Program-made: the position numbers and the translations under genes | Notes under the pieces: model-generated | Told to the model about the DNA's origin: nothing | Database searches by the model: none | Seen by the model: the letters and a program-made list of their open reading frames with translations, nothing else | Shown here: one piece after another, positions 6,053 to 35,352 of the stretch | Position numbering within the stretch: the first letter of the stretch is position 1 | Layout of the letters: each line of letters begins with the position of its first letter | Source of the DNA: Strigamia acuminata | Taxonomy: Eukaryota | DNA: 64,000 bases | NCBI GenBank assembly: GCA_949358305.1 | Contig: OX442314.1 | Coordinates: 18,600,001-18,664,000 of the forward strand | Direction of reading: 5' to 3'

Positions 6053-9000
6053 ATGAGGTACATAAATTTAAAAACAGAAGCAACAGACCCGTATGAAAGA
6101 ATCACTTCGTTAGGCTGTGGGCCTAATTTCATTCTCAATCGAAGAAGTGATTTTGAATCGATGATAAAGGATCAAGTAATAAACGATGTGTGTAGAAGAT
6201 TTGTATATTTTAAACATGTTTTGAATTGTTAGGGTGTGACATTTTGGTTTCGATTCTGGTTATCCTTTTGTGAAAACCCAGGATGCAAGGAACTGAGAAA
6301 GGTGCCATAAAATAAGGAACAAAGAAACAAAATAGCAATTTACAAGATAAACAATAAGATTAAAACAATTATAACTATTTAGATTCAAGAAAAATTTCCA
6401 GATATGAGCAGCTATGCTAATATTCAAATACACAAACATTTTCTAGAAAGTAAACAGCGAGTAGTGCTATGCAATATTCTGCTATTTGTACCCAAAAGAA
6501 ATGTATTTTCTAATTTTTTTTTTTATAAAAATCAGGATCTAACAAAGAAGCAACAAAATACTGTCTGGATAAAATTACTAAACTTTCAAGATACTCAAGT
6601 AAAAAAAAGTACCTTACAAATGCTTTTATCTTAATTACAAACTACAAATATTAGGTCAAAAAAATCTTTTCTATGAAAACTTTGAAGAACAAGTACAAGA
6701 TGTAGTAAGTTGTTATAAACCAGGCATATTCATTTTGATGGCATCCCCCAGTGCTAAAGTTCTGCAAAGTTACTTCCAAAAATACTTGTACATTCATCTT
6801 CAGATTCTTCACAGATGCGAAAACAAATTAGAATTTATGATAAATTTTCTTGCACTTCTGGTATTACGAGTCGATCCGAGACGGGTATAAGATTATCAGG
6901 ATAATTTTTCCTTCTCGAGTAAACCGACGACTGATGTTATCACAAAAATTTAATTCAAAATCAAAGTTTCGTAAAAACTTCTAGAACTTCAGCACTGGTG
7001 TTAGTGCCATACTGTAGTGAAGTTGACAAAATTGTAGCAGACTTCCCTTTAGTATTGGATATATTACTGAGTTAGTACTGTTTGAACCCAAGTTTTGTCA
7101 TTTGTACTCTGTTAGGAATAAAATAAACATTAAATGGGTGAAAAAACATGCTAGTTACACACGTGTATCGTGTGTTAATGTGAGTAGCCTAAGTTCACTA
7201 ATCAATTCCATTTTCATTTATTAGTTGCAGGAATGCGCCGAAATAGCTTTTGGTGCTAGAATTTGCACGCTGTTTTACACATGGTTAATTGCAAGCAAAA
7301 CCATAATTACAAACCAAAACTACTGGTCAGTACCCACCAGATACAGGAAAGATAATTTTAAACCGGGAATACTAGAAGCATTTCTGGTTGACAAATGGGA
7401 GGATAATTTGCTATCACTTTTGGACTTTGGGCACATAAAACCGAAATGGCTGAACACATTATTGAAGGAAAGTCCTCTTTCAATGGAACGCTATTTGAAA
7501 GGACAAGACATAAATGAGTTGAATAACTTAACGGAACAAATAAAAACATACAGACGCAGACGCAGACTGCAGGTTGAGGCAGCTGACGAACCCTTGAACA
7601 AAACACAGGCCGAAATTGGAAAATTAGTAAGTTAATAAGTCATTATTTTCATTTCGTGTCTAAACGGTTACGTTTTCTTATCCCAAAGCTGATGAGTAAA
7701 AATGGCAGCAAAAGTCGTAGCACAAAAAATGATTCAATTAATTCACGTAAAGCGTTAAATAAACGACAGTGCGCTTATTGTCACACGTTTGAGTACATCT
7801 ACGCAAAATTTAAAAAATGCAAAAAGTAAAGGTTTTACGACGAGACAAGTAAATTAGATTCACTAACTTTGTTAAAACACATTTTTTCAGATGTGAAATC
7901 GAAACATGGAAACACCCAAGATACTATTGCAGTGATAGTTGCCTTGGTAAATAAATTGAAGTTGAACCAGTTTGATCTAACAATCATAGTACCTCAATAT
8001 CATTTAATCGTGTTGAGTGAAGTTTGTTCATTTCATCGTCGATCATTTTGTCTCCTGGGTCGTCTAACTGAGCAGAGAGGCGAGTCCCCTGCTCAGTTTT
8101 CACCCACCATGCCTTAACTGGGCCCCATAAAGTAAAATATAGTTAAACAAATCAAACTAACAAGAATTCTGTTTTTAATGATGAAAAATAAATCCTAACT
8201 GCACAGGATAGAAACGACTCACCATGCTGTTCATACAGTTGACCAGCATGAGAACAGTCCCATCAGAAAACGTGCATTGACCATAGTCAGTCCATCCGTG
8301 GAAAAAAAAACTTCCCTTATATACCGCAGTATCACTGTATTCAAGGAAAATTTATATTTCCACCAGCGTACCTTAACCCTAGCAGTACAAACCTAAAATA
8401 AATCCCTTACTCACCCAACTCGGGTCATTTTTCACCTAAAGTCAAAAAGAAATTTCCAAAAATTTCTGAAAATGATTCTATTCTTTGACTATTTCATGTT
8501 TATGAAGAAATTTAACCAATTCGGTATTTGTCGAATGAGTGCAACAAAATAATTGAGATTGAATTAAAAAGGAATTTTGTGATATAAAAATTTTTAAATT
8601 TTTAAATCTATTATTTTTTTTATTGTTTGTTATGATGTTTAATGAAAATACCTGAATTTAAAAAAGAAAATTCCATTAGTTTCCGAGAAAACAAATAAAA
8701 TTGCCCCTTGGTTGGGGCAGGGAGGGTTAATCAGGCACGGGTAAGAAACAACTGAGATTCCCAACAGCAGTGACAGACTGACCAGGGTATCAGCTTGACG
8801 GATGGCAAGTGGGCTCTCTGGGCCCCTGATAAAGTGGGCCCCTTAAACATTAAACACTATGTTAAAAATATAGTAGAAGTTCCAATGTTATAGTTCTCGG
8901 TGGACCCTCTCTGTCTTTTGACAACCAATATTTTTATACCCAGTCTGCCACTCCCCAACAGGCCACCCATGACTCATTCAAGTACAGTTTCGATGGCAAG

Positions 9001-9377
9001 AATATCTGCCACCCACCTCCAACTGGGTCGTTTTTTGATGTTTTCCCAGTCCTCATGGAAATGCTAGGTTGGGTCCTCAGGAAATTCGTCCCACGGACTG
9101 CGCTTGCATATCCTCATAACCCTCATGGTCATGCATGAAATAATGACCGTAAGTGTAGTAAATACAAAAATGTATACAGTTAATGGGTTTAATTGTGTAC
9201 AATCACAATTTTTAGTAGATTTTTAATTAAAATTAATATTTCTCGTAATAATAAAGTTCTTTATTTCACAATTAATGATAGTTTGATTTTTCAGTGGAAC
9301 ATTGGTTTCAAGTTCACCAGCAAGAGCATAACAAATTCAATAATAACGTGACAAAAAAGTGCATTTTAGATGACTAA
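6053..9377 (+). CDS. Unknown-family protein with C-terminal MYND-like (C6H2) zinc finger, paralogue 1 (9 exons)
   Basis: Exons 6053-6175, 6233-6301, 6383-6449, 6536-6598, 6655-6704, 7225-7626, 7689-7825, 7891-7946, 9295-9377 are all GT-AG and phase-compatible. Reads MRYINLK..GCGPNFILNR..GVTFWFRFWLSFC..; finger CAYC..CKKC..YYCSDSC..HWFQVHQQEH. Confidence 0.9.
6749..6997. mobile_element. Non-autonomous DNA element (hAT-like CAG termini) in intron 5 of paralogue 1
   Basis: Imperfect TIR cagtgctaaagttct ... agaacttcagcactg; no clean TSD seen. Confidence 0.5.
8377..8726. mobile_element. Possible piggyBac-like non-autonomous element
   Basis: TTAA-CCCT at the left end and AGGG-TTAA at the right end; the TIR match beyond that is weak. 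Confidence 0.4.
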
Positions 9378-9687
9378 AGTTTTAAAAATGTTGCCTGCCA
9401 TTATTTTTTTTTATTATCTCCACTGTCTGAATTAATAATTACATTAAACTTGTGATTGACATAAACATTTCTGTTGTTATAAAATAATCTTTTTAAAAAA
9501 AAATTGAATATTTTTGAATAAAAATAAAATAAAATATGAAGTTAGACTTTCTACCAACAGGAGGAACATAAACTTTTACATAATCATGACAAAAATTTTG
9601 TGTACTTGATTCAAAGTATCAATAGCAAATAACCCCATTTCAAAATTTGTGTGGCGTATCTGAAATTCAAGAAACACGTGCTGCAAA

Positions 9688-11697
9688 ATGCGATTTATTG
9701 AGATAAAAAAGGAATTACACAAGAAGAGTCCATACGAGACAATATTACAATTTGGATGTGGGCCTAACTTTGTTCTCAATCGATGGAATTCATTTGAACA
9801 AATGATTAAAGACCAGGTCGTTTAAAATAATCAATAAATAAATTACTCCTGCTTTAAGTGTCAGCAGGCAAACTAATTTCCTCGTTCCTATCGTATTGAT
9901 TACTGTTTACCTTATAGGGTGTAACATTTTGGTTTAGATGCTGGCTAACATTCTGTTTCAACCCTGGTTGCTCCGATCTCAAAGCGGTATAAATTATATC
10001 ATCAATCATCTAACAATTTCAATGGCTTGTCTAAAACATAGGTACAAAACCAGTGGCCAGAATTAACAAGCAAAGTGTTCATAGATATCCATAACAGGTT
10101 TTTGCAAGGTATGGTTAACACGTGATTGTAATGTGTGCTATATCACCAAATTGTTTGCTTTACTTTTAGGATCTACTCAAGATGCTTGTAAATATTGTGC
10201 CCAAATTATTAGTAGAATGCGTGTGACTTCAGCAAGTACGTCCAAAATACAAACTGCTCTTTTTAAATCTACTTTTCTTTTATTTATTCAGAAAAGGAAC
10301 CAAGTGTCAAAGCGATGGACAAGTTTTCATTTTTAGAACTGGTAATGTGCAGAGTAATAAATATAGAAAAATATATTTATTTCTGTCTCTCCTTTGTAAT
10401 TCAGTTACAAGAATGTTGTGATTTGGCGTTTGGGGCTACTCTGTGTGTCGTGTTTTATAGATGGTTGGTTGCCAAAGATATGGACTCTAAAAATGAAATA
10501 TACTGGACCATTCCTAAGAAGTTTTTGGATCGATATTACAAGCTAAATACTCTCGACGAGTTTCTTGTCTGTCAATGGGGTGAAAATCTAGCCTCACTTA
10601 TGGGTGTCAACGAGCGGCGCCTGCATTGGTTGAAAAGAATGATACTGCATGGAAAAAAGGAGCTCGATTCGACGAAAAAAGATGGCAGTACAACCAAAGA
10701 CAACTTGAACGTATTTATTGAAAAAATTGCAGATGTTATGCGGATAAACAAGCGGAACTGGAAAAATGAAATCGGTTTAGTTGATGAACCGACTACTAAA
10801 CCAAAAAATTTAATCGACAAAAAGGTGAAGTGAACTGGCTTATACAAATATGTTTACAAGTCTCGTTATTTCGCAAACCTCATTTTCTGTAGAGAAATCG
10901 CCTTGAGAGTACAGTCAACACTGAAGACAGCATAACTACCAAAGAAACTGTTGCTTCAAAATTCAAAGGCAAACGCAAAAAATGCTGGTATTGCCATGTT
11001 TACGAAGGAATCCAATCAAAATTTAAAAGATGTAAACAGTAAGTAAACAAAATATAAAATCAACATTGTAAGTTTTAACTTGATGGGCCCTTCAAGGTGT
11101 ATTCACACACTGATTCGTTGTCGTACAGGTCCATTCAAAATTCAAATTTACTACTACTTAAATTACTTAAAGAAGTGAATTCTTAATTGAACACACATTG
11201 TAACGAACAAAAAACAGAAATTGTAATTCCGGAAAAAATGGCAGTTTTGAATAAGAGCCGCGGCTCTTACTTGATAAAATACGGTACACTGTTTAATCAA
11301 ATATACATTAATCATTAGTTGTGGGCAGTGTTGTTTAATTAACGTTTCTGGTGCAGTTTTTTTTTCGTTCTTTCGTTTGGTGTTTAAAATTTTTTTTTTA
11401 CATCATATCATATTTAGAGAAGTCATTCTAGACTAATAAGTTAAACTTTTGAAGATTGAATTTACTTCATTCTTAATTCATTTAATATTTCTAACAGATG
11501 TGCAGCTGAGAATTGGTCATTACCAAGATTCTATTGCAGTGATGAATGCCAAAGTATGTACAGCAAAGTGCTAATTGCATAAATGTTTAATTATCTTTTT
11601 AACTAATTTTTCAGTTGAACATTGGTTTAAATTTCATCACAATGAGCATTGTCAATATATACAAAACCATTCACCTGCAACCACCTCTACGTTTTAA
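9688..11697 (+). CDS. Unknown-family MYND-like zinc-finger protein, paralogue 2
   Basis: MRFIEIKK..GCGPNFVLNR; GVTFWFRCWLTFC; core exon ~10405-10824 (LQECCDLAFGATLCVVFYRWL..YWTIPKK); finger CWYC..CKQC..FYCSDEC..HWFKFHHNEH; stop TAA 11695-11697. Confidence 0.9.
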
Positions 11698-12104: not shown

Positions 12105-15100
12105 ATGAGATTTGTCCAGTTAAAAAAAATACAAGAGAATACTCCGTTTGACACAATACAACAATATGGCTGTGGGCCTAACTTTGTTCTGAATAGAGAG
12201 AAGCACTTTAGACTAATGATGAAAGACCAGGTAATGAGAATATACTAATTATAAGAGTTATTTTTCCATCCTAGTGAGGAATAATAACAACAGTTATAGT
12301 GAATAGTTTGTTAGTTAATTGTTTTTTATGTTAATTTTAACAGGATATGGTATTTTGGTTCAGGTTTTGGCTAACATTTTGCTTTAATCATGGCTGTCAC
12401 ATTCTGAAAGCGGTATCTAGAAAAAAATTAATTGATATCTTTACTACATTTATTTATGCGGTTCTTGAATTTGTTAAATTGCAGGTTCAAAAACAATGGC
12501 CCGAAACGACGAGTTACGCCTTTATAGGCATACATTCCCAATTTATTCAAGGTAATCGAAATGCCAAATCAACATTTAATTTATGAATAATTTTCGTTCT
12601 AAGGATCGGATCAAAGTCAGTACTGCATTGATGTAATTAAATCAATGTGTTTGAGAAACTCAAGTAAAACTGTTTGTACAATTATTATAGTACAAGCTAT
12701 CTTTGATCATGTTTTATTTTCTAGGTTCAAAAAGTCCAGTTTCAGACGCAAAAAATAGTTGCGAGTCTTTTGCATATGTGGTAAGTAGTACTACGCTTAC
12801 TGTATGAATAAGGAATAAGAAAAAAGAGGAAGTGCTCAACTGTACTTATACCCACCAAAATATTCGTCTCGTCGGGGGCTATAACTAAGTCCTGCTCAAA
12901 TGCATAAAATCGGCTTTCAAAGTTTGAAAAACCTAAAGTTTGGATCATAAGACGCACACCCCCCCCCCCCCCCCATTTTTGGTCTACTTTTCCGAGTAAA
13001 GTGTCTTATGGTCCATAAAATACACTATGTACGGAATAGGGTTACAGGAAAAAATAGTTTAAAGATGTTAGGCCGAATTCGCAATCGCCTTTCTCAGCCG
13101 TTAACCGCCTAATTCGTATCGCAGTCAATCCCACACATGGTCCGGCTGCAATGCCGTTGGGCACGTCACTGAGAGCAGTATCAGAGACCCAATTTCCACA
13201 GCTAGAGAATGAAATTGAATTTTACACTCAAAACCGTGGTAATGTATCTCCACACTGGTGCAAATAAAAAAAATTACAGGACAGGTATCTACCGTAAGCA
13301 CTTTTCCCTATTTTTCTGATTCCCCTTATTAGAGATGTGTCCGGTCTAGAGTCTACCGTGTCTTCTTTTCTAAGACAAAGAGTAATTTTTCTGTTCTAAC
13401 TACACTATACAGCTGTCTGGATAGCGCATGTCTAAACCACACAGCCTTGACTAAATAAAATTGTATATATAATAGTTTATTCATTCATTTAAAATATAGT
13501 TACAAGAGGTTGCAGAGATAGCATTTGGCGCAGCTCTGTGCGAAGTATTTTATAAGTGGCTGTTTGCCAATGAAGTTAAAGACAACACTAAAAATTACTG
13601 GACTATTCCAAAAGCGTACTTGTACCGTGATTTTCAACCAGGAATACTCGAAGCATTTCTTGTCCAGCAATGGAAAGATGACTTAATTTCATTTCTCGGT
13701 GTAAGTTTAAGACGGCTCCCGTGGTTGCTAAAATTATTACATGGAGGCAAGTTTAAAGACCACGCCGCTTGGAGGCACGATTACTACGTATTTATCGAAA
13801 AAATAACGGACGTCATGAGTAAACAAAGAGACCAAACAAGATTGGAAATTGAAATGGCTGATGAAATGTACAGTATCAAGAAGAGATGCACTGTTGGAAA
13901 ACTAGCAAGTGTAATAATTTAAAACATTAAATTTTGAATTAAATGTTGTGGTTTTTTTTTTTTTTTCAGATAATAAACCAGCAAAAATGTGATTTTTCTA
14001 TACCTAAAGAAGAACCCTCAAAAAATTGTGTTTTCCAAGTTAAAAGATCAAAACGGATATTTCACCAATGTTCCGGCTGTCTAGAATATGAAGACATCTA
14101 TACAAAATTTAAAAAGTGCAGGCGGTATACAAAACAAACAAACAACCACTAAATCTTTACTTTACTTCTGGAAGATGATGTTTTGGCAATAGTATCACGA
14201 ACCAAAATGTTCATAACCAACCAAACCGACATGTTCACAAAGAACATAGCCACTTAAATTTCACTAAACCTTGTGTTTGTAATACTACTTTAGATTCTTC
14301 ATTGAAGAAACCTAATTTTTGTTCAGTATTTAAAGAAAATTCATGGTCTACCTCTACCTCTACCTCCTGCCCCAAATGTCTAGTTGAAAGAAGCGAATTG
14401 GCTCAGACTTTGGATGAAGAATGGCTCACGGTGGCAATCACTTGTTCCCACTAGAGAAGTTAAACCTTCTGGAAATTCCTGTTGTCTAGTTCTTCATTCG
14501 ATTTAAAGTATACAGTCAAGCCTCGTGGAAATGAATCGCGAGGGACCAAACAAAATCAGTTCATTAGAACGTAAGTTTATTTAATCAAATTTTTTTTAAC
14601 ATAGTGTTCGATGGCCAACCAACCAACCAACCCATTTTTAAGTATTCTAATAACTAATTTCGTTATATCGCGGTTCGTTAGAACGAGGGTCGACTGTAGT
14701 ACTGTTTCAATGGGAAGAACATTTAACACCCACTTTCAATTGAGTTTTTTGAGGTTTCCCACTGCATGTTCCTTGCATTCCCTTAAACCAGGGGTCGGCA
14801 ACCTGCAGCTCTTTCGATGTCAGAGAACAGTGAGAATAGGTGGAGTAGAGAGTAGACAGACAGCTGACAGCCGTGTTAGTGGCTCTTTAATTGTAACTTT
14901 TGGCTCTTCCGTCTCAAAAGGTTGCCGACCCCTGCCTTAAACCCCAGACAATACATACAACCAAAACATCATCCTCCAAAGTCAATCAAGTGAACTATTG
15001 ATTTATTTTTTAAATATTTCTAAATGTCTACAACTTTTTCATGTTCTTTCTAAAGATGTGCTGCACAAAATTGGAGAGAACCAAGGTTTTATTGCGGTGA

Positions 15101-16535
15101 TTCTTGCCAATGTGAGTGTACAGTAAAGATATTCAATTTTGTAAAGAAAAATCTCTCGACAACTTGCATATTTTCCAACGAAAAATTCTGTATTTACCAT
15201 CAATTCCATGATAAGTTTTTTTTTCAGTTTAGTCTAAATTTGATATTGAAGTAAATTCAGTAAACTCCCTCAAGATTGGTCAGATGTTTAGCCCAGACAA
15301 AGCTGTCTGATAAAAAAGAAGTTCCAACTGACTTCACCTAAACTCTATCTGCTCAAAGAATCCACTAGTTCTCGATAGAGGTTTTGTGATTGCACTTTTT
15401 ATATGTATAACTTACGAGCTATAAGTTATTAGTTCATTCATTTTGCAATTTGCACTTTTTTGTAACATGTAACTTTTACATATAAAAACTAAAAGTGACA
15501 TCTGTTGTAACAATTAGGCATTAATGTGATCGCTGTTAGTGTTCCTAAATTTTTATTTCTTTTCTTTTCTTTTATTTATTCATTTATTTATTTTTATTTC
15601 TTAATAATTTCTTAATAATAGCAGCTCAAAGTATATTCCAATGTGCAACTGGGCAGGGTGGAAATTTGTACATTTATCCTGTTCCAATATTATTGTTTTG
15701 TATTATAATTGTGTGTGTGTTTGTGTTTTTTTTTCGTCCAAGCGTGCCTCATTCAAGCGTGCCTGGGCCGGGCGCGCCGCATCCAAGCGCGCACATCTAC
15801 ACTTAATCCCCACGTGTTTTGTCCCTGTAATGAACACCATGACCAGGTTTAAACCTCGATTACCACCCCGACTACCTCAAACTCCAGTCATTTCAGTTTA
15901 TAACTTTATTTACGACTATGTCTGTGTGCTATCTATCACTAAAAAAAATGTCTTAACTGGCTTTGACCAATTGACCATTGCGTACACGAAACCTATATGT
16001 ATAGGACAACGTATAGTTCTGTTCTATACGTTCATTTTTACTTATAACTTATAAACCTATAACTTATATCTATAAGTTATAAGTTGGATAAAAGTTGGGA
16101 AAAAAAATCCAATCGCAAAACCTCTATTGACTGGTTGGTTTGTCAGTATGTCGGTAATAAGGAAATGATCATCTCAGCTTTTGGAAATACATGCTAGACA
16201 ATGAGTTTTTCTTGGTTGCAGAAACTTTACTCTTCTAATGTAAGAAATAGCCAGTAGCAATTTGCCCTTTGACCAATGGGAATAAGTAGATTCGGTGTCT
16301 GCAAAAGATAACTTTTGCCTAAATAGTTTTTCTTAAAAATTAATTGCACATTGACAAGCATAAAATCTCCCAATGACCGTAGTTGTTTCTTTTAGTTCAA
16401 CATTGGTGTAAACAGCATGAACAAGAACACATCGAGTTCTTGAGTAGGAAACGGCAAAAAGAAATTTCTACTGCTGCGGAAAAACTACCTATTTACGCAC
16501 TACCGCATCCAGACATTGATGCTTATACTAGTTAA
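12105..16535 (+). CDS. Unknown-family MYND-like zinc-finger protein, paralogue 3 (introns expanded by MITEs; one likely GC-AG intron)
   Basis: MRFVQLKK..GCGPNFVLNR; DMVFWFRFWLTFC; core exon ~13500-13904; finger CSGC..CRRC..FYCGDSC..HWCKQHEQEH; stop TAA 16533-16535. Confidence 0.87.
14513..14696. mobile_element. Tc1/mariner (pogo/Tigger-type) MITE, 184 bp; same family as 49365-49548
   Basis: TA-cagtc...gactg-TA ends; internal ttttttaacatagtgttcgatggccaaccaacc..ttcgttatatcgcg is shared with the 49.4-kb copy. Confidence 0.8.
14789..14934. mobile_element. hAT-family (Charlie-like) MITE, 146 bp
   Basis: Perfect TIR CAGGGGTCGGCAACCT / AGGTTGCCGACCCCTG; perfect 8-bp TSD CCTTAAAC at 14781-14788 and 14935-14942. 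Confidence 0.92.
15376..16126. mobile_element. Non-autonomous TIR element (~750 bp) in the last intron of paralogue 3
   Basis: tagaggttttgtgattg ... caatcgcaaaacctcta inverted termini; no clear TSD. Confidence 0.6.
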
Positions 16536-17243: not shown

Positions 17244-18505
17244 ATGAGGTTTGTACGGCTGCAAAATCGGAAAAAGATTCCTCTCGAGGCAGTCCTCTAT
17301 TATAAATGTGGTCCTCAATTTGTCGCCAAACGACAGACAGTGTTTGAGTTTATGTTAAAACAACAAGTAATTCCAACATTTTACCAAATGATTAATGGTT
17401 ATGATACATAACCAATTATTTTTGTTTGTTTTTACAGAGTTTTACATTTTGGTTTAGGTTTTGGTTAACATTTGCTTGCTGTCCGGTCTACATCGAAGTT
17501 AGCGTGGTAAATATTCATCATACTACGTAATTACCACTTCAGATATTTAAAATACTTCTAATTTTAGATTAAAAACAAATGGCCAGAACTTTCAACTTAC
17601 TTAACCTTAAACATATACAGACATTTCTTGCAAGGTTTTTATTTTTATTTTTTACTGATTTCTTTCTTTTTCGCCCTTTGAAATATCCAAATGTGTCGTT
17701 TATTAGTTCCCGTGTCAGCTAGACATAGATATTGTATGAATTTGATTACGTCACTAAATATAGCATCTTCAGGTATCAATAAAACCGTATTACCCCGCTC
17801 TGGAGAGTACACCCTAAAATTGTGAGCCCGATAATTCAACTTTTATGGCATGTCAATTAGATCCCCTGAACTGGTAAAACTCGCATTTTAAGGCGTACCC
17901 TACAAAGCAGGATAATATGGTATAATTTTATATTACCATAAACCTCTGATTAAACGACCGGGCGTTTAGTCTTTTTAAGGACCGGACCAGGTCACAATTC
18001 GGAGTTTTACGGTAAATTTTCAAGAAAAATAACATACTTTATATTTTACTGCTTAACAGAAAGAGAATCGAATCTCAGAGCAAGATCTACCGAAGATTTA
18101 TTTGAGTGTTTTCATAGGAAATTGAAAGAATATTGGGAAATGGCGTTTGCAATTGCCCTTTGTGATGTTTTCCACAAATGGTTGCTCTCCAGTGATATGC
18201 ACGATAAATCTCAAACGTACTGGTTTCTTCCTAAAAAGTATTTAAGCCCGGATTTTAAGCCGGGTGTTTTAGAAGAATTTCTTACTGATGAATGGAACGA
18301 AAAACTGTTCAAACTACTCGGTGTTGACAAAAAGCAAATTCCATGGTTTCGCGATGTCGTGTTAACGAACGGATTTGTGAGACCGATTAAGATAGTCAAA
18401 AGTAACAGAGCCGATCGGTCGGCTTATATAAAATACATTCAATTGATTACGGAGATTATCATAACCCAGAGAAAAAAAATTCAAGAAGCAGAAAATACTT
18501 GTTAA
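17244..18505 (+). CDS. Unknown-family protein, paralogue 4; core only, no zinc finger
   Basis: MRFVRLQ..KCGPQFVAKR; SFTFWFRFWLTF; KWPE; the last exon (~18060-18505) reads through the core (MAFAIALCDVFHKWL..FKPGVLEEFL) to TAA. I found no downstream zinc-finger exons. Confidence 0.82.
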
Positions 18506-22200: not shown

Positions 22201-22280
22201 TTTGGCCCACACTTCATCTTTAGTATGAAGTCATAGGCTGTGGTTTTTATCGAATTTTTCTTCAACTGAATAAATCTCAT
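19220..22280 (-). CDS. Unknown-family protein, paralogue 5 (inverted copy with a long multi-exon Ser/Thr/Lys-rich C-terminal extension; zinc finger eroded)
   Basis: Minus strand MRFIQLKK..KCGPNYIVNR; GTTFWFRFWLTFC; core exon ~21565-21070 (FGCALCEVFYKWL..YWNTP..FRPGTLEKYL). Several further small exons run to ~19220; the 3' exon boundaries are approximate. Confidence 0.75.
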
Positions 22281-22647
22281 TGTCATTAATAATACAGAAA
22301 CAAATGTTATGGGATGTTCAATACGACTTATCCGTATTAATTTTGATTATGAATGTATATATTCCTTGAACATAAACTTGATAATTTTTGATATTGTTCT
22401 CTATGGTTACAATGGATAAACAGTGCAACAATAACTTCAGCATTTATCAATTAATGCCAACAATGCCAATAGATATTGTCTTAAGCTATTGAAAGTTGGG
22501 TAAAATTGTATGTGTTAAGTCCTACCTAAGAATCATAAAAGATTTCCCCTAAATTCTGTGTAAAAAATATTGTAATTATCACGATCGAGTCATCGGTGGA
22601 TAAGGCGCTCAAGGACCAAACCCCATTTGTCTAGAAAACCCATAAAC

Positions 22648-24447
22648 ATGAGATTTGTTAAATTGAAGAGAAAAAAAGGCAAAAGCCCCTACGATGCAAT
22701 ATTGAAATTTGGTTGTGGACCGAATTTCGTTTTGAATAGATCTGACTTATTTCGACAAATGATAAAAGAACAGGTAAAAACGAAAAAAAAATAAAATAAA
22801 TATTAAGTTGGTGCACAAATTATAAAAGTAGATATTGTAGGGTGTCACCTTCTGGTTCAGATTTTGGCTGACGTTTTGTTTACATCCGGGGTGCAGTGAT
22901 TTAAAAGCGGTATTCATTAACATTGTGGTTGGTAACTGAAAGATGCAGAGCAGCTAAACTCAAATTTCATTACAGATTCAACAGGAATGGCCGGAAATTG
23001 CGTGTTGCGTAAATGCAGGAGTGCACAAACTGTTATTACAAGGTACTTGGAAGTGCTTTTATAATTTCTTTAAAATAAAAACAACTAAAAACAAAGATTT
23101 TTAAATATTCACTGTTTATAATAATAAAATTGATTTATAAAAGCAGATTCAGTGGAAGGAGCTTGTCAATATTGCTTTGGTATAATCAGATCCATGCGCC
23201 TGCCAACAAGTAAGTGAATTCCTTCAGTTTGGTGGCCCGAATTTTTCAAGATTCCATATTATATTCTGTGCGGACTTGCCTGTTTTAATCGCGCTTTGTC
23301 GTTGATAGGACAGCCAACGTCGAAAGAGAAACAGCATTGTAAAGTGTCGTCCAAACAACTAGTAAGTATCTGTAAGTATTTAAACGGGAAATTAAAAATA
23401 AGTTGTGCAAATATGGGCCACATAGTTTAATTAAAAAATATGAAATTTACATTTGCCAGATGGGTCATAATTTTTTTCATTTTTAGTACATGTTTCTGAT
23501 TAGTTGCAGAAATTATTTATCAAGTGTACAGGAATGGCGTTTGGCTGCGCTTTATGCGAGGTGTTTTATAAATGGTTAGATGCCACAGACACGCAAGATA
23601 AACACGAAAAGTATTGGTCTATTCCAAAAAAGTATCTTGATCCAGTATTCAAACCGGGGTTATTAGAAGATTTTTTGGTTCACGAATGGCAGGATCAGTT
23701 GTTGTTACTTCTTGGTGTCACGGAGAAACAACTAGAATGGTTAGGCAATTTATTGTACGGATATGAAGACGAACTAACCGACGTGGATAAACCCAAAAGG
23801 GAATATGATTACGAGTGCGATGATTATGGAATAGACATTCAGGAGGTTATAGACTATATGACCTTAAGACGAAATCATAAACTAAAAAAAATCGAAGAAA
23901 TTGATGAAACTTGTAAGACAAGATCAAATACTAATTACACTCCCGTAGCTGCAGCAACATCTGATCATCAAGCGGTACAATTTGATGCAAAAAAAATAAT
24001 AAAAGAAAAGCCATTTTCATTTATCTTAATATTTGATTCGCAAGGTCTACAAATTACCTAAAAAAATTGATGCAGAAACACAGGTTAGTGTTGAAATAGA
24101 CAAGAAACAACCAGCACAATGTAGTTATTGTCACACAAGAAGAAAAGGTTCACAAAAATTCAAAAAATGCAAACGGTAAATAATAAATAAATAAATAAAT
24201 AAATAAATATTTTTTTTACTTGAGACATTTATTAAATTATTACTTGCAGGTGTTTAGAAGAGAATTGGCCTGAACCTAGATTCTATTGTAGTACTGTGTG
24301 CAGAAGTAAGAGTAATTGCATGTGATTTGATTATTTTCTATTCGTTTACTATATTATTTATTATTTCGTATTGCAGTTGATCACTGGTTTGAGCAGCATC
24401 ATAAAGAACATTCTCAGTACATTAAACGTATGACTAGTCTGCATTAA
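22648..24447 (+). CDS. Unknown-family MYND-like zinc-finger protein, paralogue 6
   Basis: MRFVKLKR..GCGPNFVLNR; GVTFWFRFWLTFC; core exon from 23504; finger CSYC..CKRC..FYCSTVC..HWFEQHHKEH; stop 24445-24447. Confidence 0.9.
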
Positions 24448-24892
24448 ATGTGTATCTAAATTTGCAGTTGTTTTCCCCTTTTATCTGTTCAAATCAGTGG
24501 TTTGGAAATCTCAAATTAATTAATGAGTTGAGAATCACTTTGTTTTCTTTGAACATTGCCTCCTTGTCGGAAATTGAAAAAATAGAAAATATTGTGTAAA
24601 AAAAATGAAATATTAAAAATCTGAAAAGAAAATAAAAAAATTCCAGTTTAATTCATAATTTTATACGCTTCTTTCTGAATTTCTCTAACACATTGAATTC
24701 GTTCGTGTACGTTACAGTGACAATCGCCAGCCTGCGCCTTTGTCAAGAGTCAAATTGACTCAGCCATTGTACAATAAAAATTGTTAGCTTAAGTTCTAAA
24801 TTGTAAATAGATAATACGATCAAAATTTGAGAGAAAGGTTTCATTCAACAAACAGCACTTCATTCACTAGTTAAAAGAACAAATAAACCGTT

Positions 24893-26756
24893 ATGAGATT
24901 CATTCAGTTGAACAGAAATGTGGGGAAGTCCCCGTACAATACTATTTTGGAATTTCGTTGCGAGCCTAATTTCGTTCTCAACCGATCGGAATTATTTGAT
25001 TTAATGATAAAAGAGCAGGTAAATTGGAACGATAAACTTTTCACTTATTGGCACCTAGAAACTAATGTCTTTTGCGTTAGGGAATGGCGTTTTGGTTCAG
25101 ATTTTGGTTAACATTTTGCTTTCATCCTGGCTGTCAAGATCTAATAGCGGTACTCATCTTAGAACTTTTACTCATTACGATTTATATCCGAATCAAATTT
25201 TACTTTACAGATTCAAGAACTATGGCCAGAAGTGCTCAGCTTTGTCAAAATGGGAATTCACAGACGTTTCTTACAAGGTGTATATTTTCTATACACTTTT
25301 TGGATGTCCTGTGACAAATTATAAAAAAAAATCATTGTAGATTCTCACGAAAACGTTTGCAAATATTGTTTGAATGAAGTAATTCGTCCAATGCTTTTAA
25401 TTTCGCCAGGTAATCCTACATAATGTCGTTTCCCTTTTCAAATATGTGCAATTCTTTGCAGAGAAGAATTCATTTTTTAAAAAGAAACGAGCTGAAGAGT
25501 GTACTGCAGATCAGGTATTATATTTTAAGTTTATTTTATCTGAGATTTTGGAATATTACGTCTAAAGTATGAATGCCCATAATATTCATCCAGGACATTC
25601 ATTATTGTGTTCATTAAACTGTACTTGTAAAATTGCACTTTGTTATAGTTACACGAATTAGTCTCGAAATGTTCGGCAATGGCGTTTGGTACTGCTCTTT
25701 GTGAAGTGTTCTTTAAGTGGTTAGTAGCTAATTATGTCGACGACAACTGCCAATGCTACTGGACAATCCCAGCGGATTATTTAGATTCAAAATTCAAGCC
25801 TCGTTTGTTAGAGGAATTTCTAGTAATCCAGTGGAAAGGAAATTTGTGTGCACTTTTAGGTGTAACCCAAGATCAGGTTCCGTGGGTTACAAAACTAATG
25901 AATGGAAATAAGGATCAAATATTTGGTGACGAAGAAGACAAAAATGCATATAAATATGATTCTGCAAAATTTCTTCAAGAGGTGGTTGAATTTATCCATA
26001 ATAAAAACAGAAACAGAAGAAATATGCCAGCTAATAATAATGGAGATGGAATAGCAAATTCAGAAAATACCCAAATAGTCGGAAAAATGGTAAATTTCTA
26101 AAAAAATAACAAAGTATTCAGTGTTTGGACTCAATTAATGTCGTTTCTGAAGTTGGATTTAAAACCAGCTAACTCAAATAACGTAGAAAACAAAAAGTAT
26201 CGTCAGTGTTCTTACTGTAGAGCGTACGAAGAAGGACCACGAAAGTTCAAAAAATGTAAACGGTAAATTACACTTTTCAAGCTTAACTAGGAGTACCGAC
26301 ATTAACCTCAATTAATTAGGTGTGTCGATGAAGAATGGAAAGAAACAAGATATTATTGCGACGCTGTATGTCAAAGTAAGTTTCGTGAATCTACTCAAAA
26401 CTATTCTTCAACGACCGGGTAAAAATAAACAATTGCCGGCCCGGTTTATGGACACAGAGTAGGAGCATTCATAAAGTAATTTAGACTTTGCAGCATTTTA
26501 AACAACATAATCAAAATGCTTTTAAACTGCTTGTCTCGATCTAACTTCAAAAATAATCATGAATTAGTCGTTTCCAGTCGCAATGTGCATGCACACAATA
26601 TTTAAACGTGACTCTATGAATGCGCCTAATGTTTTCCTGCGATTAATTTTAGTTTTCTCATTTTTCTGTGCAGTTGATGACTGGTATCAAGTACATCATG
26701 AAGAACATACTCGGTACAAAGAACACAATCTGGTGAAAACTAGGAATAATCGGTAA
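24893..26756 (+). CDS. Unknown-family MYND-like zinc-finger protein, paralogue 7
   Basis: MRFIQLNR..RCEPNFVLNR; GMAFWFRFWLTFC; core exon ~25649-26089; finger CSYC..CKRC..YYCDAVC..DWYQVHHEEH; stop 26754-26756. Confidence 0.9.
26461..26627. mobile_element. PIF/Harbinger (Tourist-like) MITE; related copy at ~44551-44700
   Basis: TIR agg(a/c)gcattcata ... tatgaatgcgcct; internal tttaaactgcttgtc..aacttcaaaaat..gcatgc(a/g)cac..atatttaaac is shared with the 44.6-kb copy. Confidence 0.7.
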
Positions 26757-27102
26757 AAAACATAGATTTACTTTTTAAATAATTTAAACTCGTTAAATAT
26801 TCATTACAGTGCTAAAACTGTGTAACATCTGTTATAACGTTAGAATTTATTTATCTTCTTTACTGTGCCAAAAATTTGACCCTGCAAAAACAAAGTGTAC
26901 TTATAAGCGATTAGTGAATTTTGATAAAACAATAAAAAGAGAAAATTAAACAAATAAAATAAAGTTTGAAGTTCATTCTTATTTGTTAGCATATTAGCAA
27001 CAATAATAACAAACAGCCCACATCATTCTAAACGTCTGTCTGTACAGTAACCAAAATTATCGTGTAGAATTACATATTATCCCAATTCCTAACTAATTCA
27101 CC

Positions 27103-28627
27103 ATGAGGTTTGTTCCATTAAAAATTGACAAAGGGAAAACTCCCTGCGATTCAATATTGCAATTAGGTTGTGGTCCTAATTACGTACTAAATCGACTCAA
27201 ACTGTTTGTATCGATGATAAAAGAACAGGTCTGTATTTGTCAATCAAATTTATAGCAATGTTAAAGAACATTTTTTTATAGGGCGAGGTATTTTGGTTCA
27301 GATTCTGGTTAAATTTTTGTTTCTTTCCCGGTTGTTTTGATCTGACTGCGGTATTCTCACAATTAGACATTTATTATTTGTAATTTGCAACGTAGCACAC
27401 TATGCTATAGATACACAACCAATGGCCAACTGTAACGAGTGCTGTCTACATAAATATGCACAAACAATTCTTAGAGGGTAAAAATTGTTCAATTTGATCG
27501 ATTTGATTTATTCATTAATTTCTTTCTAAGGTTCTGTTGATGAATCTATTCAATATTGTTTGGATGCAATACATTTTTTGCGCCAAGAAGTTGTTTCACC
27601 GAATAAAACAAGTGGGTAAGTTGTAAAGAATTGGTAATTTTTATCGAAATAAAATTCTTTGCAGAGAAAAGATCTTCAAAAAAACAACACTCGAGACAGC
27701 ACGAGGAAAATAAAGTTTAGTTTCGCTAAATATCGCCAATGAACTAATAAGTAATCTTCAAATTTTTATGTTTAGTTTCAAATATTGTTCGAAAAGTCTT
27801 CGAAAATTGCGTTTGGTGCGGCTCTTTGTGTTGTATTTCATGCATGGTTAAATGCTGGTTCGATTAAGAATAATATGGTTTATTGGACCCTCCCAAAAGA
27901 ATATTTACAACCGAATTTCAATCCGGGACCTTTAGAGAATTATTTAGTTGACAAATGGAAAACTAAATTGTATTTCCTTTTAAACGCTGAGGAACACAAG
28001 CTGCCGTGGATACAGGACCGATTGGATAACGACCCGCAACGTCCGAATGATAATGAGCAAGCTGACCGCAAAATAGATAATGAACTCGACCAGTGTGTTC
28101 CACAAATTTCAGAATTTATGACCATGAGAGGAGAGCAAAGAAGAAAGGCTATAAAATATGCTGATGAGAAGCCAAATAACTTGAATTTGAATGACAATAA
28201 AATGGTAAAAAGATTTTACAATGTTAAACCAAAGTATTCCAATTATTGATCTACAGTGTAGGATGCGTAAAACAAAATCAAATGTAAAGAAACCCCTGAA
28301 ATCTGAGGGGTATTTTGTTGGGAATTTTTGCCGTTGCAGCGGCATCCATCCAATTAACGCGTTTACACGGTAAGATTGAGCATGATACAGCGGTAATACG
28401 TATTAATATGTTTAATATGTATTAATATGTTTTAGTGAGAAATGGCAACAAACTAAAGTTTTCTGTAGCCCTTCTTCTATCAGTAAGATTTTAAATCCTC
28501 CCGACTCTCACTAATCTCTCACTTATTAATATCATTCTATGCAGGTAATCACTGGTTCAAACAGAATTTCAATAAGAAGATAGAAGAGAGTGACTCTAAT
28601 TCAACAATTGTTCCACGACTGTGGTAA
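27103..28627 (+). CDS. Unknown-family protein, paralogue 8; zinc finger degenerate
   Basis: MRFVPLK..GCGPNYVLNR; GEVFWFRFWLNFC; core intact. Terminal exons keep their phase but read FCRCSG..AFTREKWQQTKVFCSPSSISNHWFKQNF, with most ligands lost; stop 28625-28627. Confidence 0.85.
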
Positions 28628-29182
28628 TTTATGGCAAGTCCTTGTTTACAGACATTAAAATTTTGTCGAAATATTTACAAATACTATAAAATTTTGTGTG
28701 AATAAAATAAAAATTATTGTTTTAAAACGTAATAAGAATTTATTATGTTTATCAAGTTAAACATGTAGTGCACAAGTATGCACCAAGCAGATAAGGCAAA
28801 CAGAAATACATCAATTCAAAATAAATTAGCCGGTATAAACAAATTATCATGCATCTAACGCTAACCTATTGACCACTTAGTTGTTAGCAAATTTAAATAA
28901 CTAAATTTCTGATTGAATAAAATTGAAATAAACCCAATTAATTTAATTTAATGATTGTTGGGTTCGGAACAGCAGTCAAACGATGACTAGCGAACCAGGT
29001 AAAGCCAGGCAACGTTTAGTTTAAAAAAATAGTTTCGAATGATGCCGCTAAACTAAACATTATTCATCGGTGAGTGATGGGTAAAATAATTGCCATTGTA
29101 TCATCTATGTAAAAATTAACAAGCAAAATTTCAAGAAATCAGTTCTGTTTCATAATTCTGCACAAAACAATTTGCTAAGAAA

Positions 29183-30763
29183 ATGAGGCTAGTACAGTTG
29201 AAGAAAAAAAAAGGGACTAATACTTTTGATTCAATACTAAGTCTGGGTTGTGGTCCAAATTTTGTTCTGAATCGTTTAGAACTATTTGAAGCCATGTTAG
29301 CTGAACAGGTGAGAGTATTACATTTATTGCAAACAAATAAATTAAAAATATACAAGAGTAATTTTTCTCGTTGATAATTAGGGGTTAACATTTTGGTTTC
29401 GATTTTGGTTAACCTTTTGCTTTCAACCGGGTTGCGAAGACTTAATGGCGGTACTACAATTTCATTACAACTTCATTAAAACGTTTGTCAATATTCATTT
29501 TCCAATAGATCCAAAAGCAATGGCCTGAAATGATGATTCAAGTAAATACAGCTCTACACAGGCTTTTTATACAAAGTTACACATGGATTAAACTTCAAAT
29601 CATAGATTGGTTTTCATTTAAAGTGATTTTATTCATAGCTCCACCTCAAGATGTGTTTCAGTACTGTATAGACATTATTAAGTTGATTGGCTTGACACCA
29701 ACACCAGTTATCAAATTACCACTATTAAAGAAAACAAGATCCAGTCATAAGAAGTTGGGTTACAAAAAACCATCGAAATACTCTTTTCCACAAGCAGTTA
29801 AGTGACAGGACTATTAGTTTACAAACTAAACTTTTTACGAAAATAATAAATTAAATCTTTATTTCATTCAGTTGCAGCAAATATTCATTAAATGCACTGA
29901 AATGGCATTTGCTTGTGCCTTGTGTAACTTATTCTACGAATGGTTGGGTGCTAAAAATGTGGACGATAACACGCATGCCTATTGGGCTATTCCAAAAAGC
30001 TACTTGGATCTTAATTTTAAACCGGGAACTTTGGAACTGTTTCTAGTTAATGAGTGGAAGGATCAGTTATTACCGCTTCTCGGTGTTGCTCAGTATGAAG
30101 TACCTTGGATAAGAAAATCGATGACAAGGGATATAGATCATATCCGAATTCCTAGTACTCATAGTAAGATTAACAAGTTTGAAGATCTTAAACAGATTGC
30201 AATGTTGCTGAGCATTAAAAGAAACGAGAGAAGAAAGGCTATTCAAAACGTCGATGAAAACCTGAATAGAAGTGACACTGAGGAAGTGAGTGTGAGTAAG
30301 AATTCTTATCAGCACTGAGAGAAAGGTAATTCAATTTACATTTACAGGTTGTGAAACCTCACTGCTGTTGTAATGCCAAAGCAGAAGATAATGAAACACC
30401 AACAGAAAATAAACCGTAAGCTTCTTGCACAGAAAAAAGTGTAAAGTTGTATCTTTGTCATTTCCCTACTTCGATGTGTCTAAATTAGTCTCCGCCGATG
30501 GAAACCTATTTTAGTGTACACTTAATATTCTATTATGTATTTCTAGATGCGCAGATCAGGAATTACCTATAAAAGTCAGTAGAAGCAAATTTCTAAACAG
30601 TAAGAATAACAAAATTGATTTATTTTCTTCAAATGTGTAAGTTACAAACGATACTTTTCGCTCAGTTGACAGATGGTTTCCAAACTATCGGAAAAAAGAT
30701 GTTAAACCTCGTCCTAGATATCTCAACCGGTCACCTCGATCTGCTTCTTACATAAAAGTTTAA
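29183..30763 (+). CDS. Unknown-family protein, paralogue 9; zinc finger degenerate
   Basis: MRLVQLKK..GCGPNFVLNR; GLTFWFRFWLTFC; core exon from 29872. Terminal exons HCCCNAK..KPCADQE..DRWFPNYRKK lack the ligand pattern; stop 30761-30763. Confidence 0.85.
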
Positions 30764-31054
30764 ATTGCAAAAAAAAATTGTTTTTACATATAATAGTTTC
30801 TGTTAACTTCAATCTAATATTTTTAACTTCAAAATTTGTTTTTAAAAAAATTGTGCAAATATTAAACACTTTGTAGATCTTTTGATTTAGTAAACATATC
30901 GTAAGTCAGTTTTTAAATAATTTTCTTTATTTTTTAACAATAGAGGGCATCAATATTATTATCACGGGTAGTGATAGAAAGGAAAACAGTTTGTATAAGG
31001 CTTAAATTATTCAAAATTTAAGTGTGAGTTCAATAGTTTCAAATCAGTAGCATC

Positions 31055-33268
31055 ATGAGGCTTGTTCATTTGAGTAGAAGTAAAGATTTCAGTCCGTTTG
31101 ACGTGATATTAAGAAACGGCTGTGGACCTCATTTTGTTCTCAACCGCTTGGAACTGTTTGAATCGATGATCAAAGATCAGGTTTTGTTTGATTGGTTTAA
31201 CCAATTCTAAGTTTTAGTGTTCATTTTTTTTATTTACTATGAATTAATCGTAGGGCGTAACATTTTGGTTTAGATTTTGGTTAGACTTTTGTTACTATCC
31301 TGGTTGTGAAGACTTGGCAACTGTAAGTTCACGACATGTTTTTCTTTTAGACATATCTAGTGTTTATCTTTCTTCTAGATTAATAATGAATGGCCGGAAA
31401 TGAGAGATTATGTAAACACTGGTGTTCATACATTGTTTGTAAAAGGTGATATTTAAATTAGTTATTTTTACTAGCCGTTTAAACTGAATTTATTTTTTGC
31501 AGGATCACTTGAAGAAGCTTGTCAATACAGCTTAAACGTTATTAAGCTTATGCGTTTTAATTTGCCAGGTAAATTGATATTTAGATTTTGACATTTATGT
31601 CCAAACTCGTTATAAAAAGAGAAGAAAATTTTGTTATGATAAATCGTATTGAACTACAATGTACTCCGCACGAACCGGACATAGCACCGTCCAGATAGCT
31701 GTGTGGTCCGTGCAAGTTTGCTGGACCCAACCTATTCCCAGCAATGTTAAATTCCCTCATCCATTCAGACAGCCTCTTTGTCCGGACAACTTTCTGGGAC
31801 CCATCCTGTGTCCGGCCCGTACAGAGTACACTGTATTTAATTTAAACCTTTTTCTTTTAATATTTAGACTTAAAGACATTATTGTCTGCAACTACAGTTT
31901 ACGTTTCAAAATCTGGAAGTGGAAAAAGCAAAAAGAAAAAAAAGGACGAAACTTTTTTTGACGTGGTGAATATTTTTTCGATGCGTGAAAAGGAAATTGT
32001 TCACTCCAAATGAAATTTTTTGCAGTTACAATCAACCTTTATTAAATGTACCGGAATGGCATTTGGTGCTAATCTTTGTGTTCTTTTCTACGAATGGCTG
32101 GCAGCTCACGACGCAAATGAAACCTCAGAATATTATTGGTGTGCACCAAAAAAGTATTTTGAACAGAACTTCCAGCCAGGAGAACTAGAAATTTTCCTCG
32201 CGAATGAATGGCGAGATAAACTGGTATGGCTGCTAGGAGTTAGTTACTACCAAGTTCCATGGCTAAGAAAATTATTGACTGGGAAATTAGAGTCCCGTTC
32301 TCAAGCCAAACTCCAACATTGTAGTAAAGTATACTGTATGAAAGATATTAAAAAAGTGGCAAAATTACTAAGTATCAAAAGAAATGAGAAGAGAGTGGCA
32401 ATACAAAGAGCAGATGAAATGTCCAATATTTATGAAAATAAAATTTCGATACCTGTAGTAAGTATTGCTCATTAAATTACATCATTAATTTTTTTTAATG
32501 TTGATTTCCAACGATAGAAGAAAGATCGAAAGAGAAAAACACGAAGTAGGTCTAGAGTTACGTCACAAGAGAATTGGGAGACAGTCAGAAGTGTTGGGTC
32601 TTCAACAAAACCAAGAAATAGGTCTAAAGTCACGTCACAGGAGAATTGGGAGACTGTCAGGAGTGTTGGGTCTTCAACAAAACCAAGAAATAGGTCTAAA
32701 GTCACGTCACAGGAGAATTTGGAGACTGTCAGGAGTGTTGGGACTTCAACAAAACCAAGAAATAGGTCTAAAGTCACGTCACAGGAGAATTTGGAGACTG
32801 TCAGGAGTGTTGGGTCTTCAACAAAACCAAGAAATAGGTCTAAAGTCACGTCACAGGAGAATTGGGTGACTGTCAGGAGTGGTGGGTCTTCATCTTCACA
32901 CAAACGCCCTAAGTGTGCCCATTGCTATAAATCGATTAAACGAAGACACAATGCAGTTGTATGCAAACGGTACTTTTTTTTTTAATCTTTAAATCATGAA
33001 TTGTTTAATGTTGTGGTGTTTGAAACAACTTAGATGTGTCGATGAAAGATGGACCCAACGAAGATGCTACTGCGACGGCTTTTGTAAAGGTATTTCAGTT
33101 TTCTTTTTTCAGTTGAAACGATTTTATTTTATGATATTTTTTTTTTAAATTCCAGTTCAACATTGGTATCGGGACCATCAAAAGGAACATTATGACATCA
33201 GAAAAAATTGTTCAGAAGAATCATTCACCAAAAGTTTGCCACTTTCTGTTACAAAAACGATCACTTAA
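31055..33268 (+). CDS. Unknown-family MYND-like zinc-finger protein, paralogue 10 (24-aa repeat linker)
   Basis: MRLVHLS..GCGPHFVLNR; GVTFWFRFWLDFC; core exon from ~32026; repeat-containing exon ~32518-32969; finger CAHC..CKRC..CYCDGFC..HWYRDHQKEH; stop 33266-33268. Confidence 0.88.
31657..31833. mobile_element. Tc1/mariner-type MITE in intron 4 of paralogue 10
   Basis: TA-caatgtactccgcacgaaccggaca ... tgtccggcccgtacagagtacactg-TA: imperfect TIRs with a TA TSD. Confidence 0.75.
32547..32893 (+). repeat. Coding 72-bp tandem repeat (~4.8 copies; RSKVTSQEN(W/L)ETVRSVGSSTKPRN)
   Basis: taggtcta recurs at 32547, 32619, 32691, 32763 and 32835; in frame within paralogue 10. Confidence 0.95.
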
Positions 33269-33371
33269 AAATCATTCACCAAAAGTTTGCCACTTTCTGT
33301 TACAAAAACGATCACTTAAAAATCATTCACCAAAAGTTTGCCACTTTCTGTTACAAAAACGATCACTTAAA
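33219..33371 (+). repeat. 51-bp perfect tandem triplication spanning the stop codon of paralogue 10
   Basis: aatcattcaccaaaagtttgccactttctgttacaaaaacgatcacttaaa occurs at 33219, 33270 and 33321. Confidence 0.95.
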
Positions 33372-33775
33372 ATGTACTTTAGTTTGTGCATTCTGTTTCT
33401 CTACTTTTGAATTTAAGTTTAAAAAATTATTCATAAAAATGAGTTTGTTTACAAAGTAACAAAGCAGTAAAAGATGGAATAAAAATACCACAAGAACCGT
33501 AAATGTAAACACACAATAAAAATAATAAAAATTGAATAAAATGAATATATGCTGATAATAAAATTGAAAATGAAAATATGCTGATAATAAAGTTTGTTTG
33601 TTTTTTTTTAAATGATAAATATTCAACAACTAACCGTACATACGGTAGTGCAATTATTAACTTGGAAACGACAATTAATAACAATTCATTGCCACACAAC
33701 ACATCCTTGACAACACTAACAAAATTTGACAGAAGTATAAAATATCTTTAAAAATTAGTGCGAATTTATTCAAAT

Positions 33776-35352
33776 ATGAAGCTTATCAAGTTGGGTTCAG
33801 AGAGAACAAAATCAGCATTTAATACAATACTGGATCTTGGTTGTGGTCCGAATTTTCTTTTAAATCGCGTAGAACTTTTTGAAACAATGATAAAAGAGCA
33901 GGTAAGAATGGATAAAATCTATATGTAAATGCCAATTATAATTATATCCACGTTTTAGGGCATTACTTTCTGGTTCAGGTTTTGGCTTTCATTCTGTTTA
34001 GACCCAGGCTGCGACGATCTAAGTGCCGTACAAAGACAATGGCCAGAAATGTCAGCTTACGTCAACAGAGGCGTACACAAATTGTTCTTATCGGGTTCAC
34101 ATGAAAAGACATGTCAGTACTGTTTGGATATAATCAAACTGCTCGGTATATCCTCACCAAACAACAAACCAAGCCATGTGCTCGTGAAGAAAGCAATTCG
34201 CAAGAAAAAACAAAGAAATGTCGCGGTTAAAGTTGTGGTTGGTTATTGAGTATTCACCATGTAAATAATAATTTTAAAAATAATAATTTAATTAGTTGCA
34301 GGAACTTCTCATTAAATGTTTTCAGATGGCATATTCCTGTACTCTGTGTGTGTTATTTTACGAATGGCTTGGAGTTGGTGCCACGCTTTTTGATGAGAAT
34401 AATAGCAACGGCGTTACTTACTGGACTGTACCCAAGAGATATTTGGATCCTGATTTCAAACCCGGGTCGTTAGAAGTATTTCTGGCCAATGAATGGGAAG
34501 ATAAACTAGCAACACTGCTTGGTGTGACGTATAATCAAGCTCCATGGTTGAAGAAACTAATCAATGAGCGTTCACAATTATTGCGTGAATTGCAAGATAA
34601 GCTTGAAATGGATACTAAACTATTTTCTCTGGATACTGTCACTAAAGTTGAAGTTTTATTAAGCATACGGAGGAATGAATGCAGAAAAGCCATCAAACAA
34701 AGTGACGAAACTCCAAATGGAATTCAGTTGAAAGTAAGCAATTTTAAACTTTTTATGTTCCGTGGTTAATTTATAACGATGGAAATTCTGAACGTCAATA
34801 TTTGCTTCAAACAAACAAAAATTTGTTTACGGAATTGCTTACGTTTGTGCATCGTAATAAATTAAACATCATTTTTATATTTTTCCTCCTAGAGTTCCGA
34901 AAAAGTCTGCCTATTGAAAAAGACATCTACTCACGTTAAACCAAAACTTGAAAAAGAAAAACATATAAAAGAAGCAATAATACCTGATGGTTGCGCTTGT
35001 GCGTTTTGTGGTAACGAAATAAACAGCAAAATAAAATATTCTAAGTGTAATAGGTATAAACTAAACATGTATATGTCTGATAAACTTGAAGTATTTACAA
35101 ATGCGTATTAACAGATGTTCAAATGAAAACTGGTTAGACCAAAGATATTATTGTAGCAATACTTGTAAAGGTGAGTGAAATTTATAACTTAATTTAATTA
35201 AAGTAATAGCTTTTTAATTATTATTCTTTTTTACAGTTGAACACTGGTTTCAAGAGCATCACAAAGAGCACTATGCGGTTAAAAAGAAAACGAAAAAAAG
35301 AAGTTATTCGCCAACCTCTTTTGTTCGTAGTTTATGTCCGACAAGAACTTAA
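33776..35352 (+). CDS. Unknown-family MYND-like zinc-finger protein, paralogue 11 (exons 2-5 fused)
   Basis: MKLIKLG..GCGPNFLLNR; one exon ~33959-34237 encodes GITFWFRFWLSFC..VQRQWPEM..HKLFLSGSHEKTCQYC..; finger CAFC..CNRC..YYCSNTC..HWFQEHHKEH; stop 35350-35352. Confidence 0.9.

Follow-up and report, generated by a model that had tools for sequence, protein, structure and literature searches.

An array of eleven selected paralogues in the centipede Strigamia acuminata pairs an undescribed core domain with a variant MYND finger

Results

A tandem array of eleven spliced paralogues

The window analysed here is a 64,000-nucleotide stretch of the Strigamia acuminata genome (assembly GCA_949358305.1, contig OX442314.1, positions 18,600,001 to 18,664,000, forward strand), and it holds, at 6053-35352, an array of eleven paralogous genes that we number g1 to g11 (Table 1). 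We scanned all six frames for the motifs, mapped the exons by hand and placed ten of the genes on the plus strand and g5 alone on the minus strand. Each of four core motifs occurs 11 times in 6001-35400 and is absent from 35401-64000; 50 Markov shuffles yielded no more than one occurrence, and a family profile run against the whole window retrieved no copy beyond the eleven, the number counted in an earlier, sequence-only reading of this DNA.

That reading described the genes as intact-looking and spliced, which the models bear out: ten run from ATG to stop without an internal stop, g5 is open across 545 codons with provisional 3′ exons, and 82 of the 83 modelled introns are GT-AG. The remaining one, a predicted GC-AG intron in g3 (13905-13969), sits where the paralogues have a GT-AG intron. 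The single exon plan attributed to all copies holds in part. Introns 1-3, 7 and 8 keep their aligned column and phase among the paralogues, and introns are absent from g11 (2-4), g9 (intron 4) and g4 (intron 5). Pairwise identity between paralogues is 26-45%, and there are no young copies. In long contigs of two DNA runs from one study, 17000-36000 displays an even depth (97-105x in X1) and zero differing letters, so that this part is no assembly duplication; note that the window itself may have been assembled from these two runs, which limits their value to excluding an assembly duplication in 17000-36000.

Table 1. Gene models of the array (strand as in the forward orientation of the window; exons in transcript order)
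Gene	Position	Strand	Product	Exons
g1	6053..9377	+	349 aa, core + intact finger	6053-6175, 6233-6301, 6383-6449, 6536-6598, 6655-6704, 7225-7626, 7689-7825, 7891-7946, 9295-9377
g2	9688..11697	+	361 aa, core + intact finger	9688-9816, 9918-9986, 10042-10108, 10170-10235, 10292-10341, 10405-10824, 10893-11038, 11498-11553, 11615-11697
g3	12105..16535	+	377 aa, core + intact finger; GC-AG intron 6	12105-12230, 12344-12412, 12485-12551, 12604-12663, 12725-12780, 13500-13904, 13970-14124, 15056-15111, 16396-16535
g4	17244..18505	+	256 aa, core + helix, fingerless	17244-17366, 17438-17506, 17568-17634, 17707-17772, 18060-18505
g5	19692..22280	-	core, then long Ser/Lys-rich tail, fingerless; 545 aa over 12 modelled exons, likely 13th ~19857-19692, last exon provisional	core exons 22280-22152, 22097-22029, 21967-21898, 21809-21744, 21671-21634, 21571-21071
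g6	22648..24447	+	368 aa, core + intact finger	22648-22773, 22841-22909, 22976-23042, 23147-23209, 23309-23361, 23504-23974, 24045-24175, 24250-24305, 24377-24447
g7	24893..26756	+	357 aa, core + intact finger	24893-25018, 25081-25149, 25211-25277, 25341-25409, 25462-25514, 25649-26089, 26153-26262, 26320-26375, 26674-26756
g8	27103..28627	+	354 aa, core + decayed finger (Trp retained, most Cys/His gone)	27103-27228, 27282-27350, 27411-27477, 27531-27611, 27665-27714, 27776-28204, 28257-28369, 28436-28482, 28545-28627
g9	29183..30763	+	350 aa, core + decayed finger	29183-29308, 29382-29450, 29509-29575, 29639-29796, 29872-30285, 30348-30415, 30547-30599, 30666-30763
g10	31055..33268	+	492 aa, core + five in-frame 24-aa repeats + intact finger	31055-31180, 31254-31322, 31379-31445, 31503-31568, 31868-31965, 32026-32457, 32518-32969, 33034-33089, 33156-33268
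g11	33776..35352	+	391 aa, core + intact finger; without introns 2-4	33776-33901, 33959-34237, 34296-34733, 34893-35053, 35115-35170, 35237-35352

Relatives in Strigamia maritima and age of the family

A search of 5.8 billion proteins returned four relatives, T1IJB6, T1JJ11, T1ISU7 and T1JEV9, all from the geophilomorph centipede Strigamia maritima, which supports a family restricted to centipedes at the sensitivity reached and agrees with the lineage-specific family proposed before. In T1IJB6 three units have been merged into one model; they are the one-to-one orthologues of g9, g10 and g11, arranged in that order. The orthologue of g4 is T1JJ11, likewise fingerless, and T1ISU7 covers the C-terminal half of a g10 orthologue whose finger is intact. 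Four genes (g4, g9, g10 and g11) thus have one-to-one orthologues at 71-77% identity (179/251, 177/229, 277/381 and 276/378), 19 of their 24 junctions align gap-free with S. maritima, and in the tree each orthologue pair stands at 100/100, the deeper forks being mostly open. The finger of the g9 orthologue is likewise decayed, and hence the finger losses of g4 and g9, common to both species, predate the species split.

Behind three SAM domains, T1JEV9 carries another core of a twelfth type, which shares 36-44% identity with every window copy. In its residues 1-1255 a three-SAM protein, which we take to be liprin-beta-like, is joined to the family core, whose start lies at residue 1041. The model is probably two merged genes, in which case the family has a member at another locus. 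Database labels of the four accessions are automatic only (MYND-type, SAM domain, uncharacterised). We found no paper naming them and no description of the family in the literature; the word MYND is absent from the main text of the genome paper, most of its supplements lying outside that search. The S. maritima models are automatic, made with Maker according to passages of PMC4244043, and they thus provide independent support for splicing, not proof of expression.

The array is under purifying selection

We estimated the ratio of non-synonymous to synonymous substitution rates (dN/dS) with a codon model for each protein region. It amounts to 0.16-0.17 in the N half of the core (100 codons, 11 genes), 0.15-0.17 in the C half (77 codons), 0.14-0.19 in the following helix (46 codons) and 0.13-0.15 in the finger (49 codons, only the 7 intact genes); imposing dN/dS=1 costs a 2dlnL of 290, 233, 68 and 81, respectively. 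Note that identity is 0.35-0.51 at third codon positions versus 0.52-0.72 at second positions, which places synonymous sites close to saturation and makes the dN/dS values rough. The family is under purifying selection, and the selective conservation read earlier from the motifs is supported, with dN/dS at ~0.15 and not ~1. We propose that old tandem duplications gave rise to the family, which was then stabilised.

These data bear on two alternatives. The idea of an assembly artefact, or of an array made up of pseudogenes or transposon relics, is largely refuted by the open frames, the conserved intron phases, the dN/dS of ~0.15, the second-species orthologues and the even DNA depth over 17000-36000; no transposase or viral match was obtained for the family, and we regard this explanation as highly improbable. 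The other, raised in the sequence-only reading, is that the encoded proteins serve the germline or genome defence and diversify against transposons or satellites. The proteins are basic (pI 8.0-9.7), with clusters resembling nuclear localisation signals in 9/11, which would suit such a role. A weak hint also comes from g11: the loss of three adjacent introns is the pattern predicted for loss via reverse-transcribed mRNA, a route said to need germline transcription in passages of PMC3652778 that also note conflicting evidence, and it thus fits past germline transcription of g11. However, housekeeping genes too are transcribed in the germline, the paralogues are old, four genes keep one-to-one orthologues, three of them in conserved order, and stable orthologues together with low dN/dS speak against an arms race. 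The satellite neighbourhood, invoked earlier as a further hint, gives no evidence either way. We therefore consider a defence role unlikely.

The core is an undescribed domain

The protein starts with an N half of ~100 aa (exons 1-4), followed by a variable basic linker and a C half of ~80 aa (exon 6); the C half is followed by a helix of lower conservation, by another linker and, in 7/11 genes, by a finger encoded over exons 7-9. The core measures ~205 aa plus the variable linker, and not the ~230 aa proposed before. Its novelty stands: no match was found in Pfam, NCBIfam, PHROGs, PDB or Atlas, and the core is an undescribed domain. Among five structure predictions, the best (pLDDT 75.6) is all-helical with no strands, and the core is accordingly predicted to be all-helical. 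No signal peptide, hydrophobic leader or strong membrane helix was detected in the 11 proteins (top 19-residue hydropathy 1.55).

The invariant residues of the core are mostly hydrophobic or Pro/Gly. Nevertheless, Cys23, Arg31, Gln42, Arg49, Cys139 and Tyr158 are invariant in 15/15 sequences, Glu176 is near-invariant, and a Cys55/Cys60/His81/Cys96 set is retained in 12-13 of 15. Such residues would be expected if the core were an enzyme or a metal-binding domain whose substrates are targeted by the finger, as for the SET or prolyl hydroxylase domains of other MYND proteins. With no enzyme fold matched and no known catalytic motif recognisable, this alternative appears improbable.

The C-terminal finger is a variant of the MYND type

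The finger follows a fixed 49-residue pattern, C-x2-C-x12-C-x2-C-x11-C-x3-C-x4-W-x3-H-x3-H, which is intact in g1, g2, g3, g6, g7, g10 and g11 as well as in two S. maritima models. In g8 and g9 the finger exons are still in frame with most ligands lost, the stop of g4 falls after the helix and ahead of the finger, and g5 has a Ser/Lys-rich tail in its place. The earlier description of a MYND-like finger thus applies, although not to every copy. Its eight ligands (six Cys, two His) reproduce the MYND-type layout of two CxxC pairs, an aromatic-CxxxC and a His/Cys pair; the finger of the g11 orthologue matches Pfam zf-MYND with E 0.0024, below the cut-off, and there is a weak alignment to the MYND structure of ZMYND10 (E 5.9). 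The kinship with the zf-C6H2 finger of MetAP1 that had also been suggested is not supported: six Cys and two His are in common, and neither the zf-C6H2 profile nor the aminopeptidase domain is among the Pfam matches listed, with E up to 1-10.

MYND fingers have a cross-brace beta-beta-alpha fold and bind peptides such as PXLXP or PPPLI. In BS69, PXLXP binding depends on a Gln and a Trp that follow the sixth Cys, and the finger is dimerised by a coiled coil ahead of it, with a gain in affinity (passages of PMC4742278). The corresponding Trp is present in 7/7 intact fingers and the Gln in 3/7.

Discussion

A two-ended intracellular adaptor

The genes most plausibly encode intracellular two-ended adaptors, to which we give a probability of about 0.5; binding and localisation are what we infer here. 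This reading builds on the observed gene structure, selection, finger pattern and orthologues, and on proteins that have no detected signal peptide or membrane helix. The core, predicted to be all-helical, would attach to a partner or to other members of the family. The helix after the core might pair two chains, by analogy with coiled-coil-MYND proteins, and the C-terminal finger would bind zinc and, via its conserved Trp, a proline-rich motif of a second protein. Variation at the Gln position would give the paralogues different ligands. Since a full core is retained in the four copies that have lost a working finger or have none, they would occupy the same docking site and compete for it without recruiting the finger partner, thereby tuning the output.

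Several observations weigh against this reading. Only one of the five core models reached pLDDT 75.6, the remaining four staying at 58-61, and the invariant polar residues of the core (two Cys, two Arg, Gln, Tyr) could mark an active site instead. The finger of the g11 orthologue scores E 0.0024 and 18.3 bits against Pfam zf-MYND (PF01753), below the cut-off of 22.7, and the g10-type finger, taken from the orthologue, has neither a Pfam match nor a MYND match in PDB. Passages of PMC3555993 define MYND as a C4-C2HC finger whose zinc sites are cross-braced; the last ligand here is His in every intact copy, and the Trp-His spacing is one residue longer than that given there for DEAF-1 (W533, H536). 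Finally, the ligand-binding Gln is replaced in 4/7 intact fingers. By its sequence pattern the finger is MYND-like, yet it fails strict MYND membership.

Comparison with known MYND and CARD proteins

With BS69/ZMYND11, DEAF-1 and ETO the family shares a C-terminal MYND-type finger with the ligand-binding Trp and a predicted long helix ahead of it; it differs by His as the last zinc ligand, by longer loops, by an undescribed helical core without SAND, PHD, bromo or PWWP match, and by being a tandem family that includes fingerless members. The SMYD proteins and arthropod SmydA have a MYND finger in common with it, and these families have reportedly expanded in arthropods. In our family no SET match was found, and the finger sits at the C terminus instead of within another domain; the SMYD arrangement, SET interrupted by MYND, is not seen, and the core model is strandless.

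A specific form of the adaptor reading takes the N-terminal lobe of the core for a highly diverged, cryptic CARD-like death fold. The proteins would then be centipede signalling adaptors in immunity or cell death that assemble like-to-like, and the old array would comprise full-length adaptors with a MYND-type C6H2 finger and fingerless members acting as CARD-only decoys. In the predicted core model, and there only, a break at residues 30-31 may correspond to the kinked helix 1 of CARDs. Compared with the CARD adaptors (ARC, BinCARD and the NOD1 and NLRC4 CARDs), however, there is no sequence signal and scores are below the bar, and the family core has an extra 50-aa C-terminal lobe. None of Pfam CARD, Death, DED or PYD is among the matches listed for T1IJB6, T1JJ11 or 35 of 46 A5 rows, and our literature search found no CARD+MYND architecture. 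We hold this form of the adaptor reading to be possible, if doubtful.

Overall, the array represents a real domain family that is under selection, has not been described and is combined with a variant MYND finger; its ~205-aa, predicted helical domain extends the small set of MYND partners. Current annotation hides at least 12 old, selected paralogue types inside merged gene models. That the finger was lost repeatedly while the core was retained offers a direct test of an adaptor-plus-decoy design. Were the CARD likeness true, this would be a hidden myriapod death-fold signalling family, invisible to sequence searches; otherwise the family is restricted to its taxon and its general reach is modest.

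Other features of the window

Some features lie within the array. Exon 7 of g10 contains, at 32535-32892, five 72-bp copies that are 95% alike and encode an in-frame Ser/Thr/Arg-rich 24-aa repeat, which is missing from the S. maritima orthologue T1ISU7 and is thus recent. The g10 stop codon is spanned by three identical 51-bp copies (33219-33372). On the plus strand at 19440-19550, after an AG, one frame reads a CxxC resembling the first pair of the finger, which may be a relic or an alternative last exon of g4. Depth at 19536-20169 is several hundred times single-copy in both DNA runs, revealing a very high-copy repeat near the g5 3′ end.

Upstream of the array, positions 1-4769 are a satellite of ~443 copies of an 11-bp unit, followed up to 4930 by a short AT-rich array of 20/62-bp units. 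Between these and g1 lie a 90-bp inverted pair (5387-5476 and 5668-5757, 88%) and a direct pair that flanks it (5224-5376 and 5804-5943), together resembling a small non-autonomous transposon. Downstream, we find a spliced gene of the acyl-CoA ligase superfamily (~36500-39750, plus strand; PDB matches to CoA ligases), a Cys-loop ligand-gated ion channel gene (~43450-44500, minus strand; Pfam Neur_chan_memb, E 7e-20) and a multi-EGF gene with many laminin-type EGF repeats (~50800-61000, minus strand), presumably MEGF6/10-like.

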